Shown here piece by piece: positions 25,039 to 33,454 of a DNA stretch of 64,000 nucleotides. A program made the position numbers and the translations under genes. The first letter of the stretch is position 1. Each line of letters begins with the position of its first letter. The stretch is from positions 7,294-71,293 of the forward strand of contig JBBKVY010000095.1 in the NCBI GenBank assembly GCA_037968675.1, given 5' to 3'. The stretch is from Acidimicrobiales bacterium (lineage in GTDB: Bacteria > Actinomycetota > Acidimicrobiia > Acidimicrobiales > Salinilacustritrichaceae). The notes under the pieces were generated by a model, which was given only the letters and a program-made list of their open reading frames with translations, was not told the DNA's origin and ran no database searches.

Positions 25039-25111
25039 CGACGAGCGCGGAATCCTCGCCCGATCCGACGGCGCTCGGTACACGAGCGGCAGGTCTCCTG
25101 GGAATGGCGGA

Positions 25112-25127
25112 TGAACGTCGGGTGAGC
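25112..25127 (-). promoter_or_regulatory. Candidate PHO box upstream of ppk1
   Basis: TGAAC at 25112 and TGAGC at 25123 (11-bp period), reading G(C/T)TCA on the minus strand, about 28 nt upstream of the -10 TACCGT. Confidence 0.4.
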
Positions 25128-27689: not shown

Positions 27690-27733
27690 GTTCGCCCGAT
27701 CGGCCCCGCTCGTTCACCCCCCGTTCACCGACC
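27690..27733 (+). promoter_or_regulatory. PHO box upstream of pstS
   Basis: GTTCACCCCCC GTTCACCGACC at 27712 and 27723, plus an in-register GTTCG at 27690. This matches the actinobacterial PhoP 11-bp GTTCA direct repeat. Confidence 0.8.
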
Positions 27734-27816: not shown

Positions 27817-28869
27817 TTGTTCCGGAATAGACGTTGGGCATCGCTGATCGCCCTGTTCACTGTCCTTGCCCTCGTGGCCGCCGCTTGTGGCGACGACGAC
27901 GCGAACGCTGGCGCCGGCGAGACGCCGACGGACAACGGTGGCGACGACACCACCGACGGCGAGTCGGCCAACGGCCTCCCCGACTGCCTCGACTTCGCCG
28001 ATCTCTACGCCCTCACCGGCCCCGAGTCCGACGGGTTCGCGAGCTGGAGCGACGCTGCGGACCTCGCTGGCGAGCTGGGGTCGACCACCGAGCTCCCCGA
28101 CACCGAGCTCACGGTCGCTGGCCCCGGCGAGGAGTCCGGGACCTACGACACCTTCGTCGAACTCGTGATCGAGGAGTTCAACGAGGACCGCAGCGTCGAC
28201 GCAGTGGCTCGCACCGACTACCTGTCGAGCCCGAACGACAACGTCATCGTCGAGAACCTCTCGACAGCCGACGGATCGCTCGGCTGGGTCGGGTTCGCCT
28301 TCTACATCGAGAACACCGACGTCCTCCGGGCCTTCGAACTCTCCGACGCTGCCAACGACGTGGAGTGCACGGAGCCCACGCCCGAGACCATCGCCTCCGG
28401 CGACTACCCGCTCAGCCGTTCCCTCTACATCTACGTGAACAACGCCAAGGCGGAGGAGAAGGGTTCGCTGTCGGCCTACGTCGACCAGTACCTCGGCGAT
28501 CTCTACGACTGCACCACCCAGGCCGGCTACGTCGCCCTCGAGGACTCGACGCTCACCGAGACCGTCTCCACCTGGGAGGACAGCGGGTACTCCGGCAAGG
28601 AGGACGATGGCGCCAGCCTCGACATCTCCGGCTCGTCCACCGTCGAGCCGATCAGCCAGTGCGTGCTCGAGAAGACCGGCTTCGCAGGCAGCGTCGAGGG
28701 CCCCGGCACGGGCGACGGCTTCCAGCGCTTCTGCGCCGGTGAGACCGACATCTCCGATGCCTCCCGCGCCATCAAGGACGAAGAGGCCGCGTCCTGCACC
28801 GAGGCCGGCGTCGAGTTCACCGAGCTCGTGGTCGCCATCGACGGCATCGCAGTCATGACGGCGGCGTGA
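27817..28869 (+). CDS. pstS: Phosphate ABC transporter substrate-binding lipoprotein, circularly permuted
   Basis: TTG start after GGAGG and lipobox LVAAAC. The PstS motifs are all present (SGT, PLSRSLYIYVN, GSSTV, GTGDGFQRFCAGETDISDASR, IDGI) but in permuted order. Confidence 0.9.
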   Translation: MFRNRRWASLIALFTVLALVAAACGDDDANAGAGETPTDNGGDDTTDGESANGLPDCLDFADLYALTGPESDGFASWSDAADLAGELGSTTELPDTELTVAGPGEESGTYDTFVELVIEEFNEDRSVDAVARTDYLSSPNDNVIVENLSTADGSLGWVGFAFYIENTDVLRAFELSDAANDVECTEPTPETIASGDYPLSRSLYIYVNNAKAEEKGSLSAYVDQYLGDLYDCTTQAGYVALEDSTLTETVSTWEDSGYSGKEDDGASLDISGSSTVEPISQCVLEKTGFAGSVEGPGTGDGFQRFCAGETDISDASRAIKDEEAASCTEAGVEFTELVVAIDGIAVMTAA

Positions 28870-28977: not shown

Positions 28978-30003
28978 ATGACCGCCCTCACCATCGACGA
29001 CCTCCAGGGCGACCGGAAGCGGTCCCGCAAGGAGGCCCTGGTCTCCCGGCTCTTCACTGCCGCCGCCGCGTTCTCGATCGTGGTCAGCGCGCTGATCGTG
29101 ATTTCGCTGTTCCGCGAGGCGTTCCTCTACCTCACGGGCATCAAGCTCGACTGGCCTGTCTACCTCCAGGGCGATCTCCCCTTCATCGGAGCCCGCACCG
29201 AGTTCTGGACCCAGACCGGCCAGGGCGTGGTCCTCAGCGACCTGTGGACCACGGGATGGTTCCCCCGCCGAGGCCTCTTCGACGTCAAGACGCTTCTCGT
29301 TGCCAGTCTGGGTACCACCGCCGTCGCCATGCTCATCGCCACCCCCGTCGGAATCGGCACGGCCGTCTACCTCAGCGAGTACGCGAACCCCCTGGTCCGA
29401 CGTATCGTCAAACCGGTCATCGAGGTGCTCGCCGGTATCCCATCGGTGGTCCTGGGATTCTTCGCCCTCTCCTGGATCGCCCCCAACGTCGTCGACCGGG
29501 TCTTCGATCCGACCTCGTCGGCCAACCTGCTCGTCGCCGGCATCGGCGTCGGCATCCTCACGATCCCGCTGGTGGCGTCCATCTCCGAGGACGCACTCCA
29601 GTCGGTGCCGATGTCGCTGCGGGAGGCGGCCTACGGCGTCGGCGCCAAGAAAGTGCAGACCGTCGTCCGAGTGGTCATCCCCGCCGCCCTCTCCGGACTC
29701 GTCGCCGCGTTCATCGTGGCCGTGTCCCGCGCCATCGGCGAGACCCTCGTCGTCACGATCGCCGCCGGCGGTTCCGGCGGCGCGGCGTTCCCCGGCTCGT
29801 TCCCCTCGCCCGAGATGCTGACCGAGCCCGGGCTCACGATGACGGCGGCCATGGCGACCGTCGCTGCCGGGTCCGACCAGGTCGTGGGTCAGGGCAACGC
29901 CTTCCAGAGTCTGTTCTTCGTCGGACTCGTCCTGTTCGTGCTCACGTTCGTGCTCAACATCGCTGCCGACCGGATCGTGCGTCGATTCCGGCAGGTCTAC
30001 TAG
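28978..30003 (+). CDS. pstC: Phosphate ABC permease PstC
   Basis: AVYLSEYA, LAGIPSVVLGFF, EAAYGVGA and SRAIGET. Confidence 0.93.
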   Translation: MTALTIDDLQGDRKRSRKEALVSRLFTAAAAFSIVVSALIVISLFREAFLYLTGIKLDWPVYLQGDLPFIGARTEFWTQTGQGVVLSDLWTTGWFPRRGLFDVKTLLVASLGTTAVAMLIATPVGIGTAVYLSEYANPLVRRIVKPVIEVLAGIPSVVLGFFALSWIAPNVVDRVFDPTSSANLLVAGIGVGILTIPLVASISEDALQSVPMSLREAAYGVGAKKVQTVVRVVIPAALSGLVAAFIVAVSRAIGETLVVTIAAGGSGGAAFPGSFPSPEMLTEPGLTMTAAMATVAAGSDQVVGQGNAFQSLFFVGLVLFVLTFVLNIAADRIVRRFRQVY

Positions 30004-30021: not shown

Positions 30022-31101
30022 ATGACACTCGCCTCCACCGACATCACCACGAGCGCCGTCGCGTCGGCACTCCAGGGCAAGAAGGTCGACACCGCCGGGA
30101 CGATCTTCCGCGCCGCACTGCTCGCGACCCTCGTCTTCACCGTGGTCGTCCTGCTCACCCTGCTCGTCTCCGTCGTCCAGGACGCGATGCCGATCCTCAG
30201 TGGAGAACCACTGACGTCCGAGGTCCGATCGGACCTCGTGGACACCACGACCGACCCGCCCACGATCACGCAGTTCGGCGAGACGTTCGACGTCCAGATC
30301 TCGACCGACGCCGCCGGCAACGAGACGTACTTCCAGCTCGACGAGCGGAGCTTCGGCGACTTCGTCGGCGGCAACGTCAACTTCACGAACCCGGCCGAGA
30401 ACGGCATCAAGCAGGGCATCTTCGGTTCCCTGGGCATCGCGGTGATGGTGCTGGTGTTCTCGATCCCGATCGGGGTCGGTGCTGCGGTCTATCTGGAGGA
30501 GTACTCCAAGGCCAGCCGCTTCACCCGACTGGTCGACGTCAACATCCGTAACCTGGCCGGCGTACCGTCCATCGTCTACGGCATCCTCGGGTTCACCGTG
30601 CTCGTCACCGCCCTCAACGGCATCACCGGAGGGCGGTCGCTGATCTCCGGCGGCATCACGCTCGCGATCCTCGTGCTGCCGGTGGTGATCATCACCTCGG
30701 CCGAGGCGGTCCGCGCCGTCCCCCAGCCGATCCGCGAAGCCGGTTACGGCGTCGGCGCGACCCGGTGGGAAGTCACCCGGTACCACGTGTTGCCGTACGC
30801 GATGCCCGGGATCCTCACGGGAACGATGCTCTCGCTCGCCCGAGCCCTCGGAGAGGCTGCACCGTTGATCCTCGTCGGCGCCCAGACCGGGTTCTTCACC
30901 GATCCCGAGGGTGCGCTCGACCGTCTCACCGGCAACTTCACCGCCCTGCCGATGCTCGTGTTCAACTTCACCCGCCAGCCCGGCGATGCGCTCAAGACCG
31001 AGGGCGCGGCCGCGGCGATCGTCGTCCTCCTGCTGGTCGTGCTCTTCGTGAACGCCACTGGCATCATCCTGCGAAACTCCTTCGAGAAGAAGCGGAGCTG
31101 A
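30022..31101 (+). CDS. pstA: Phosphate ABC permease PstA
   Basis: [35 protein letters not shown] and [10 protein letters not shown]. Confidence 0.93.
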
Positions 31102-31105
31102 CCCC

Positions 31106-31996
31106 GTGTCCGACCATGTCCTCGACACCCCCGACGCCACCACCAGCACCGGGAGCAACACCATGAGCAACCGCCCCGTGGTCGAGACGTCTGCGTCCCT
31201 GCGCGACCGCGAATCGAATCGGATCGTCTTCGACATCGACGATCTCGACGTCTACTACGGCGACTTCCGCGCGGTGCACGACGTCAGCCTCGAGATCCGT
31301 GAGCACGAGATCACCGCGTTCATCGGCCCCTCCGGCTGCGGGAAGTCGACCGTGCTGCGTTGCCTCAATCGCATGAACGACCTGATCGACAGCGCTCGCA
31401 TCGAAGGCTCGATCAAGTACCACGGCGTCGACCTGTACGACCGGAAGGTCAACGCAGTCGAGGTCCGGCGCCGTGTCGGCATGGTCTTCCAGAAGGCCAA
31501 CCCGTTTCCCAAGTCCATCTACGAGAACATCGCGTTCGGTCCGCGGATCTCGGGGTACAAGGGTGACATGGACGAGCTCGTCGAGCGCTCGCTGACCCAG
31601 GCGGCGCTGTGGGACGAGGTGAAGGACCGCCTCAAGGAATCCGGCCTCGGCATGTCCGGGGGCCAGCAGCAGCGGCTGTGCATCGCCCGCGCGCTGGCGA
31701 CCAACCCCGATGTGCTGCTGATGGATGAGCCGTGTTCGGCACTCGATCCCATCGCGACCGGACGCATCGAGGACCTGATCCAGGAGCTCAAACACGACTA
31801 CACCGTCGTGATCGTGACCCACAACATGCAACAGGCCGCTCGCGTGTCCGATCGCACCGCGTTCTTCACGGCGCAGATCGACTCCGACAGCGACCGCCGA
31901 ACGGGCCTGCTCGTGGAGTTCGACGACACCGAGAGCATCTTCTCGACGCCCAAGGACGAACGAACCGAGAACTACGTCACCGGCCGGTTCGGGTGA
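31106..31996 (+). CDS. pstB: Phosphate ABC ATPase PstB
   Basis: [35 protein letters not shown] and [12 protein letters not shown]. Confidence 0.96.
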
Positions 31997-32016: not shown

Positions 32017-32682
32017 ATGGAGATCCGCAAGTCGTTCCACGAGGAGCTCGACCAGCTCCGCATCCAGGTCGAGTTCATGGGCGTCCGGGTCGATGAGAAC
32101 CTGGAGCGGATGCGACACGTCCTGTCTGACGGCGACGAACGGATCGCGCAGGTCGCACTCGCCGCCGACGACGACATCGACGCCATGAACGTCTCGTTGA
32201 CCGAGCGCTGCTACGACCTCCTCGCCCGCGAGAACCCGGTCGCCTCCGACCTCCGCTTCGTCGTGTCCGTGCTCCGTGTCCTGTCGGAGCTGGAACGGGT
32301 CGGTGATCTTGCGCTGCGCGTCGTCAAACTGAATCCGCAGCGCGACCAGTGGTCGCGGAGCGAGACGACCTATCACATCCTCGTCTCGATGGCGGACACC
32401 GCCATCGGCTCCTTCCGGTCGGCTCTCCGCGCCTGGTCGGTACAGGATCTCGACCTCGCCACCGAGTTGGTCCACCGCGTCCACACGATGGACGTCCACT
32501 ACGAACACCTCATGGCCGCGATGCTGCGCCTCGACGGTGACGACGCGGTCGTGGTCGCTACCAACACGCTCATCGCCGGCCGCTCGCTCGAGCGGATCGG
32601 CGACCACGCCGCCATCATCGGCGCCCGTCTCCGCTATCTGATCACGGGTGACCCAGATCATCTCTCCGCTGAGGTTCGATAG
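32017..32682 (+). CDS. phoU: PhoU phosphate-signalling protein (copy 1)
   Basis: RKSFHEEL, PVASDLRFV, ELERVGDLA and LERIGDHA. SD GGAGGAGG. Confidence 0.9.
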   Translation: MEIRKSFHEELDQLRIQVEFMGVRVDENLERMRHVLSDGDERIAQVALAADDDIDAMNVSLTERCYDLLARENPVASDLRFVVSVLRVLSELERVGDLALRVVKLNPQRDQWSRSETTYHILVSMADTAIGSFRSALRAWSVQDLDLATELVHRVHTMDVHYEHLMAAMLRLDGDDAVVVATNTLIAGRSLERIGDHAAIIGARLRYLITGDPDHLSAEVR

Positions 32683-32686
32683 GTTC

Positions 32687-33454
32687 ATGACCGAACAACC
32701 CAAATCCGAGGTCCGGGTGCACTTCCGAGACGAGCTCGACGATGTGGTCCGCGACATCACCCGCCTGGCCGGGTTCGTCACCGAAGCGATTCCCCGTGGC
32801 ACCGAGGCGCTGCTCTCGGGCGATCTCCAGATCGCCCAGGAGATGATCGACCACGACGACGTGATCGACGACCTCTCCATCGAGATCGAGGAGCGTTGCT
32901 ACAAGATCCTCACGCTCCAGGCACCGGTGGCCAGCGACCTGCGCGCCATCATCGCCGCCATCCGCCTGGTCGCCGAGATCGAGCGGTCGGCCGACCTGAT
33001 GGTCAACGTGTGCAAGGGCACCCGCCGGATCTACCCGATCGAGCTCCCGCCGAACGTCCGCGGCTTGCTCCAGCAGATGAGCGAGCAGGCCACCAAGCTC
33101 TTCCGGATGTGCATGGACGCCTACTTGGAGGGCGACGCGTCGCTCGCCGCGGCCCTCGATGACATCGACGATCGCCTCGACGACCTCCACGCCGACTTCA
33201 TCCAGGCGGTTCTCGAGTGGGGGAGCGTCGCTGGCGACATCCAGCCGGCCGTCCAGCTCGCGCTGATCGGCCGCTACTACGAACGCATCGGGGACCACGC
33301 GGTCAACATCGGCGAGCGCGTCCGGTACATGGTGGACGGATGGCTTCCCGAGCACGCCGGAGCCGCGCGTGTCCACGCGTCCAAGCCGGTCTGGTCCGAC
33401 GACACCGACGGGAGCGCCGACGACTCCCCCGGCGAGTCGATCCCCGACGAATGA
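32687..33454 (+). CDS. phoU: PhoU phosphate-signalling protein (copy 2)
   Basis: RVHFRDEL, QAPVASDLR, EIERSADL and RYYERIGDHAVNI. Confidence 0.92.
   Translation: MTEQPKSEVRVHFRDELDDVVRDITRLAGFVTEAIPRGTEALLSGDLQIAQEMIDHDDVIDDLSIEIEERCYKILTLQAPVASDLRAIIAAIRLVAEIERSADLMVNVCKGTRRIYPIELPPNVRGLLQQMSEQATKLFRMCMDAYLEGDASLAAALDDIDDRLDDLHADFIQAVLEWGSVAGDIQPAVQLALIGRYYERIGDHAVNIGERVRYMVDGWLPEHAGAARVHASKPVWSDDTDGSADDSPGESIPDE

Follow-up and report, generated by a model that had tools for sequence, protein, structure and literature searches.

The 64,000-nt stretch of Acidimicrobiales DNA analysed here (the window) carries a phosphate uptake operon whose binding-protein gene, pstS, reads its conserved blocks in an unusual order. 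The locus raises the question whether this order is real, whether the product works, and by which route a binding protein can be re-threaded in this way. Taken as a whole, we consider it highly probable that the gene is a functional, naturally permuted PstS that was cut at the hinge and carved from a fused tandem.

The open reading frame (27799 or 27817 to 28869, + strand) encodes a lipoprotein of 350 aa. TTG at 27817 was preferred as start codon, because GGAGG is located 7 nt before it and the database protein P0001 (350 aa) begins there. The gene and its upstream elements are composed as follows.

27712..27729, + strand: PHO box, two direct 11-nt repeat units (GTTCACCcccc GTTCACC), about 88 nt 5' of the start codon
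27805..27809, + strand: Shine-Dalgarno sequence GGAGG, read from the sequence, 7 nt before TTG 27817
27817..27888, + strand: lipoprotein signal peptide, ending in the lipobox L-V-A-A-A-C (Cys codon 27886-27888)
27889..27963, + strand: acidic low-complexity tether from the lipidated Cys to the folded part (AlphaFold2 pLDDT about 45-55 for residues 1-50)
27964..28584, + strand: segment A, residues 50-256, equivalent to standard PstS positions 89-293 (HMM, 4jwo, TIGR02136)
28585..28617, + strand: new linker SGYSGKEDDGA, approximately residues 257-267, coupling the old C-terminus to the old N-terminus (coil in the AlphaFold2 model)
28618..28869, + strand: segment B (residues 268-350) and stop codon, equivalent to standard PstS positions 2-88 (4jwo, TIGR02136, HMM)

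Segment A comprises the CLDF helix, the ESGT loop, NDN, GWVGFAFY, PLSRSLYIYVN, GYVAL and the last helix. Segment B comprises GSSTVEP, GPGTGDG, FCAGETDISDASR and the IDGIAVMT strand. The tether differs in sequence and length among homologues, and the linker is likewise variable. All motif positions given in the first-pass annotation were recovered exactly: the lipobox Cys at 27886, DCLDFADLYAL at 27982, SGT at 28135, PLSRSLYIYVN at 28408, GYVAL at 28525, the linker region WEDSGYSGKEDDGAS at 28573-28617, GSST at 28630 and GTGDGFQRFCAGETDISDASRAIK at 28705. The final stretch VAIDGIAVMTAA ends at 28866 and is followed by the stop codon (28867-28869).

Circular permutation of the PstS gene at 27817..28869, with the N-terminal third moved to the C-terminus, was confirmed by three independent comparisons. 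Two matches in swapped order, the pattern that the first-pass annotation had named as support, were obtained. Against PDB entry 4jwo, query positions 250-353 corresponded to chain positions 40-147 and query positions 81-233 to chain positions 174-309. Against TIGR02136, the first match along the chain was to profile positions 158-294 and the next to positions 21-125, both in a single open frame. An HMM of the standard order, built from 20 standard-order relatives, aligned residues 50-256 with profile positions 89-293 and residues 268-349 with positions 2-88. In the canonical arrangement GSST, GTG, D..ASR and DGxxV precede CL, SGT, DN and PLSR, and the query departs from this order. All solved PstS structures have the part equivalent to segment B at the N-terminus, in the standard order.

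The two TIGR02136 stretches jointly span profile positions 21-294 of 295, and PF12849 was matched with 77 bits (cut-off 27). The total TIGR02136 score (143.7 bits) is below the cut-off of 206.6 bits only because the match is split.

The closest standard-order relatives, P0037 and P0041 from Acidimicrobiia, have about 60% identity to each half, which we judge from the alignments to be far beyond chance. Where these proteins read '...AIDGLSILTNPANDAVECLDFAALYAL...', the permuted protein has IDGIAVMTAA-stop at its C-terminus and LPDCLDFADLYAL at its mature N-terminus; their C-terminus '...ATRSAWSGR-stop' matches '...VSTWEDSGYSGKEDDGASLDISGSST' in the permuted protein. Both the alignment with these relatives and the HMM place the cut within the standard '...IDGxxVxT-NPANDAVE-CLDF...' junction, at the DGIAVMT/CL boundary named in the first-pass annotation, and the old ends are bridged by the short new linker. 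The C-terminus of the permuted protein coincides with the point where the standard chain crosses to the other lobe. Query residues 299-347 matched TIGR00975 positions 32-80, and segment A matched E. coli PstS from about residue 118 on. Judged from these matches, the cut probably lies close to the point where the E. coli PstS chain first crosses the hinge, at residue 76/77.

A near-collinear match to PstS2 of S. pneumoniae (4h1x) was obtained with both Foldseek and hmmsearch and was rejected as a true collinear relationship, the lobes being swapped in it. The long collinear alignment arises because the two lobes of the fold are related by pseudo-twofold symmetry, and it does not contradict the permutation, since the latter rests on the approximately 60% identity to standard relatives. 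As the comparison of 4h1x with the permuted profile and model illustrates, this symmetry is able to mislead order-dependent comparisons.

The first-pass annotation had proposed a taxonomic survey of the permuted form. The survey revealed no one-off of the query genome but a widespread unnamed subfamily: among the 120 nearest protein clusters (90%-identity clusters from NCBI, ENA, JGI and Logan), 93 had the permuted order and 27 the standard order, with permuted clusters from Actinomycetota and Chloroflexota spanning 50-100% identity to the query. The total set of permuted proteins with the hinge-site cut comprised 104 sequences. A lipobox was found in 34/34 aligned permuted proteins, with the Cys present in 102/104 of the total set, and nearly all of the 34 end 2-6 residues past IDGxxVxT. 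Among species-level genomes, the permuted gene was detected in Acidimicrobiales, including Microthrixaceae and Iamiaceae, and in Chloroflexota, namely in Candidatus Limnocylindrales and in a MAG labelled Chloroflexia. Wherever the available sequence suffices, pstC(A)B follows directly 3' of the permuted gene (8 further loci in two phyla, with Acidimicrobiia and the Limnocylindrales of Chloroflexota represented). Within the query genus (23 species), 6 species have the permuted form, 7 the standard form, usually in two copies, and the rest are without a member of the PstS family. When 201 genomes were sampled evenly across the class, the permuted form occurred in the query genome only. The permuted form is therefore patchy but well established, and is found in many uncultured Actinomycetota and Chloroflexota. 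P0155, a candidate for a distant permuted cluster, was discarded as a frameshift-garbled translation of a Limnocylindrales-type protein.

The view that the order results from faulty assembly or binning of the MAG, for example from a misjoin within a tandem pstS array that conceals a standard PstS, has practically no chance of being correct: the query genome is indeed a fragmented MAG (277 contigs) and tandem pstS genes are common in its relatives, but the same order, end point and lipobox-before-A arrangement recur in the 93 clusters of all four databases at 50-82% identity, on contigs of >1 Mb, in long-read MAGs and in five other species of the query genus, and a shared artefact can be discounted because an artefact cannot diverge to 50% identity with the frame kept open. 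On the basis of its conservation in independent assemblies, the permuted gene is authentic.

In two Microthrixaceae MAGs, two adjacent permuted pstS genes, each with a separate lipobox, were observed before pstC (L008, 6001-7059 and 7219-8247; L031, 5374-7504). The first copy of L031 is broken by frameshifts.

The permuted gene is embedded in an otherwise ordinary operon, the downstream part of which is listed below.

28978..30003, + strand: pstC (TIGR02138, 215 bits, cut-off 196)
30022..31101, + strand: pstA (TIGR00974, 241 bits, cut-off 193)
31106..31996, + strand: pstB (TIGR00972, 392 bits, cut-off 343)
32017..32682, + strand: phoU copy 1 (TIGR02135, 145 bits, cut-off 130), start approximate (methionine of MEIRKSF)
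32648..33454, + strand: phoU copy 2 (TIGR02135, 162 bits)

The sequence GTTCACCccccGTTCACC at 27712-27729 is an exact PHO box and the sole zero-mismatch site in the 64 kb; the consensus used is the PhoP-type actinobacterial one. Together with pstC, pstA and pstB scoring above their NCBIfam cut-offs, this bears out the earlier statement that PHO box and pstCAB are intact. In the query genome, which is 94% complete, a second PstS was not found, whether of the TIGR02136 or of the TIGR00975 type. Upstream of the permuted pstS lie ppk1 and a gene for a MutT1-like Nudix protein. The 5' end of ppk1 contains a weaker direct repeat that resembles a PHO box with 2 mismatches (25110-25127, - strand); it is within chance expectation (0.48 expected at that stringency). 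The tandem phoU genes 3' of pstB overlap by about 35 nt and are followed by a gene for a PhoR-like histidine kinase.

The ligand motifs, described as intact in the first-pass annotation, proved to be invariant in an alignment of 34 permuted proteins with a mean column identity of 58%: GSSTV, GPGTGDG, D..ASR, ESGT, DN and the R of PLSR are identical throughout, corresponding to residues S271-V276, G295-G301, D311, A315-R317, E106-T109, D141-N142 and R201. By analogy with solved homologues, these residues would be the phosphate ligands. Compared with the closest species-level relative, dN/dS was 0.26; values of 0.4-0.8 for more distant pairs were discarded as not meaningful, dS of this GC-rich gene reaching a plateau near saturation (about 0.5-0.8). 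An AlphaFold2 (AF2) model computed with the 34-sequence alignment had a mean pLDDT of 87.5 and a pTM of 0.78, with residues 51-350 mostly above 90. Its best Foldseek matches were PstS proteins, 4h1x (E 1e-11) and 4jwo. Model and matches agree with the predicted two-lobe type II binding-protein fold.

The permuted pstS is very probably functional, because it is conserved, under purifying selection and operonic. The product is very probably a working, Pho-regulated and lipid-anchored phosphate-binding protein of PstCAB. Functionality had also been suggested on first reading; the gene being the sole PstS, its conservation, the dN/dS of 0.26 and its place in the operon all speak in favour of this. 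It appears highly improbable that the gene, as a leftover of a fused tandem PstS, is in decay and no longer serves the transporter as its binding protein. In favour of decay, the gene stems from larger tandem forms, and the relative L031 does have a frameshifted first copy. The query gene, however, is the only PstS of its genome, in an operon that is otherwise intact and driven by a PHO box, and its invariant ligand motifs, low dN/dS, confidently predicted fold and conservation in two phyla are at odds with decay.

For the functional permuted protein, the following architecture is proposed from homology and from known PstS structures. The break in the chain would lie where lobe I first passes into lobe II at the hinge, after the IDGxxVxT strand and before the CLDF helix, and the old C- and N-termini would have been fused by a linker of about 12 residues. 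Signal peptide, lipobox and tether would be followed by lobe II, by the part of lobe I to which the chain returns, by the C-terminal helix and the linker, and finally by the three N-terminal beta-alpha units of lobe I. This permuted chain would still fold into the usual two-lobe Venus-flytrap, with its phosphate ligands unchanged and its termini at the hinge. One inter-lobe connection would be exchanged for a new one via the linker, and the lipid tether would enter beside the hinge, at the start of lobe II, and not at strand beta1 of lobe I. The protein would bind phosphate with high affinity, dock to PstCA and feed the PstCAB importer, its expression being Pho-regulated via the upstream PHO box.

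An altered architecture could also imply an altered task. The permuted PstS might be functional with a changed role, such as arsenate, phosphite or organophosphate selectivity, or different opening and closing dynamics or docking, in which case the permutation would be adaptive and not the neutral resolution of a tandem fusion. We regard this as unlikely. The shift of the lipid tether to the hinge side and the altered lobe-connecting segments are in line with it, and the use of the same cut site in separate lineages could mean selection; yet this site may equally be the only structurally tolerated break. The ligand motifs, moreover, are all identical to those of standard relatives with about 60% identity, and the operon partners are ordinary pstCAB. 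A further point in favour of a changed role is a covarying pair of cysteines that spans the new linker in the query clade.

28510..28512, + strand: clade-specific Cys, residue 232, candidate disulfide partner of the Cys at 28660
28660..28662, + strand: clade-specific Cys, residue 282, candidate partner of the Cys at 28510, across the new linker

The co-occurrence of both cysteines was perfect in the 104 permuted proteins (both in 27, neither in 77, one alone in 0), which suggests that C232 and C282 form a disulfide stapling the new junction. Directly after the second Cys, the query clade has a 5-residue deletion.

As to its origin, the functional permuted PstS was probably derived from a PstS-PstS tandem fused in frame (B-A-B-A), from which the leading B and the trailing A were lost. 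Duplication and trimming, which the first-pass annotation had put forward, is supported by sequence comparison, because fused tandem PstS reading frames are extant in related Acidimicrobiia; the intermediates that it predicts thus exist. L012 (5515-7563) encodes a 682-aa lipoprotein with the order signal peptide-B-A-linker-B-A and diverged copies. A 991-aa protein with three copies is encoded in a long-read marine Acidimicrobiales MAG (L014, 5770-8745), and similar fused tandem PstS were found in L011 and L015. In genus g51, the fused tandem PstS is the conserved form: a fused PstS of about 620 aa is present in 13 genomes of about 1 Mb (including G056, G080, G112 and G120). More distantly, two- to four-domain PstS were found among the 50%-identity representatives (P0125, P0126, P0133, P0136, P0163, P0203 and P0214), with up to four domains in P0214 (1578 aa). 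Family hits numbered 4078 in total. The linker of the permuted proteins resembles the C-tail plus the pre-beta1 segment, i.e. the old termini, of standard relatives from the respective lineage; the signal peptides are specific to each lineage. In Acidimicrobiia, fused PstS with two or three complete binding domains were observed directly 5' of pstCAB.

Permuted proteins with other cut sites were also found, each with its own lipobox. P0172, P0194 and P0226 (L084, 352-1446) are cut near profile position 117-129; they start at the strand before the SGT loop and finish with the CLT...W helix. P0172 was present in two samples, in one of them on a 29.6-kb contig with pstCAB-phoU downstream. P0194 (PERM2) is sister to the tandem protein P0125 (SH-aLRT 96). 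P0221 (L085, 593-1645), known from a single 2.1-kb contig, is cut near position 215, before the PLSR strand.

Two candidates for partially trimmed forms were rejected. The 477-aa protein P0025, considered as a B-A-B intermediate, has an extra N-terminus, a NuoD fragment joined to a permuted PstS, and is most likely a chimera on a 2.2-kb metagenome contig. P0055 (L003, 1-1290), considered as an A-B-A intermediate, is encoded on a JGI contig that stops exactly inside a near-identical repeat; either the contig end truncates a fused tandem, or the pattern stems from assembly at strain level.

Trimming of B-A-B-A forms may have occurred, or may have been reversed, more than once. In a tree of 228 rows, calculated by quick searches with all sequences restored to the standard order, hinge-site permuted proteins were distributed over several groups, with 9 state changes, at least 5 of which are forced by well-supported branches. 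The permuted clade of Chloroflexota is nested within standard proteins of Chloroflexota (SH-aLRT 98-99). A single permuted clade was rejected for the whole protein (AU p = 0.0013, lnL difference 211) and for segment A alone (p = 0.023); for the short segment B alone, one clade was not rejected (p = 0.18). The signal peptide and the C-tail, which lie outside the tree, are common to permuted and standard proteins of the same lineage: in Limnocylindrales, for instance, MTITTPARLGALALAAALAVGAC of the permuted proteins is paralleled by VTITNPTRIGALALVVAFAIGAC in the standard protein L038. Repeated change of the order, with several origins, is thus likely on phylogenetic grounds. This recurrence is weaker than the other conclusions, as gene conversion between paralogues or reversion via tandems could mimic several origins.

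A single origin of the hinge-site permutation, with its scatter produced by horizontal transfer and gene conversion with standard copies, or by reversion, appears doubtful. It would readily account for the identical cut site in 104/104 proteins, and the coexistence of permuted and standard species within one genus suggests replacement; segment B taken alone would also be compatible with it. Against it stand the AU tests on the whole protein and on segment A, the nesting of the Chloroflexota permuted clade among standard proteins with the same signal peptide and C-tail, and the further cut sites, by which permutation is seen to recur in the PstS family.

The broadest form of the several-origins reading holds that, in TIGR02136 PstS, every stage of permutation by duplication is preserved in living genomes, i.e. 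single genes, adjacent tandems, proteins of two to four domains fused in frame, and single-domain proteins permuted at 3 or more different cut sites, and that the hinge-site permutation arose independently in Actinomycetota and Chloroflexota. We consider the chances of this reading to be evenly balanced. If it holds, the family would offer a tractable natural series on how and why a Venus-flytrap protein becomes re-threaded, and on the effects of a tether at the hinge on binding dynamics or PstCA docking.

PstS is among the best-studied binding proteins and has served as a model of anion recognition, as a scaffold of phosphate biosensors and as an indicator of phosphorus stress in environmental omics. 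The permuted form is missed or under-named where a profile cut-off presupposes collinearity (143.7 against 206.6 bits for the query). As the split match falls below the TIGR02136 cut-off, permuted PstS are unnamed or generically named in databases, and metagenomic counts may underestimate pstS in Acidimicrobiia and Limnocylindria. The permuted proteins are also natural proof that the PstS fold tolerates a break at the putative first hinge crossing, which is useful when permuted sensors are designed. Taken with the fused tandems and the additional cut sites, they form an unusually complete natural record of circular permutation, and they permit a direct test of how tether position and hinge connectivity affect the open-closed equilibrium of a binding protein.

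Standard PstS (TIGR02136/PF12849; e.g. 4jwo from Planctomyces limnophilus and 9jwy from Pelagibacter HTCC7211) consist of the same blocks with the same ligand motifs, are likewise anchored as lipoproteins in monoderms and are likewise encoded upstream of pstCAB. They differ in order, the permuted protein having positions 89-293 before 2-88. In the first-pass annotation it had been considered that the form might already be a described common subfamily. It is common in sequence databases, but neither a description of a permuted PstS in the searchable literature nor a solved structure was found.

Among the Foldseek matches was 4kqp, SBD2 of GlnPQ from Lactococcus lactis. GlnPQ has tandem substrate-binding domains in one polypeptide that is fused to the permease. 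The fused PstS-PstS(-PstS) proteins similarly have several binding domains per chain; unlike GlnPQ, they are lipid-anchored multi-domain proteins without a permease and are likely precursors of the permuted single-domain protein.

Substrate-binding proteins with natural circular permutations had been described before (PMC4990184, PMC2395249), and the present case is therefore less surprising than it had seemed on first reading. TpMglB-2 (Tp0684) of Treponema pallidum, a type I sugar-binding lipoprotein, is the founding permuted ligand-binding protein of 'Type Ic / Cluster Bc'; the first three strands of one lobe are located at its C-terminus, and ligand binding is kept (PMC4990184). This permutation is found mostly in organisms that tether the protein (PMC4990184). 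The permuted PstS is alike in being a naturally permuted binding lipoprotein of an ABC transporter. TpMglB-2, however, has a Type I (Cluster B) fold without sequence homology to the permuted PstS, and in the part that was moved, similarity to the standard N-terminus could not be detected, its origin being unclear (PMC4990184), whereas the parts of the permuted PstS keep about 60% identity to standard relatives and intermediates are extant. All sequence and fold matches of the permuted PstS were to type II PstS-like proteins; it acts like the 'Type Ic / Cluster Bc' class in being permuted and tethered and is no member of it.

Within the Type II binding-protein fold, OpuAC of B. subtilis and ProX were identified with CPSARST as circular permutants of each other and of ModA/CysB (PMC2395249). 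They belong to another family with glycine betaine as ligand, and their permutation is detectable by structure only, at <24% identity (PMC2395249). In the sequence-order-dependent Foldseek search with the AF2 model, the OpuAC structures 2b4m and 3chg occupied ranks 3rd to 6th.
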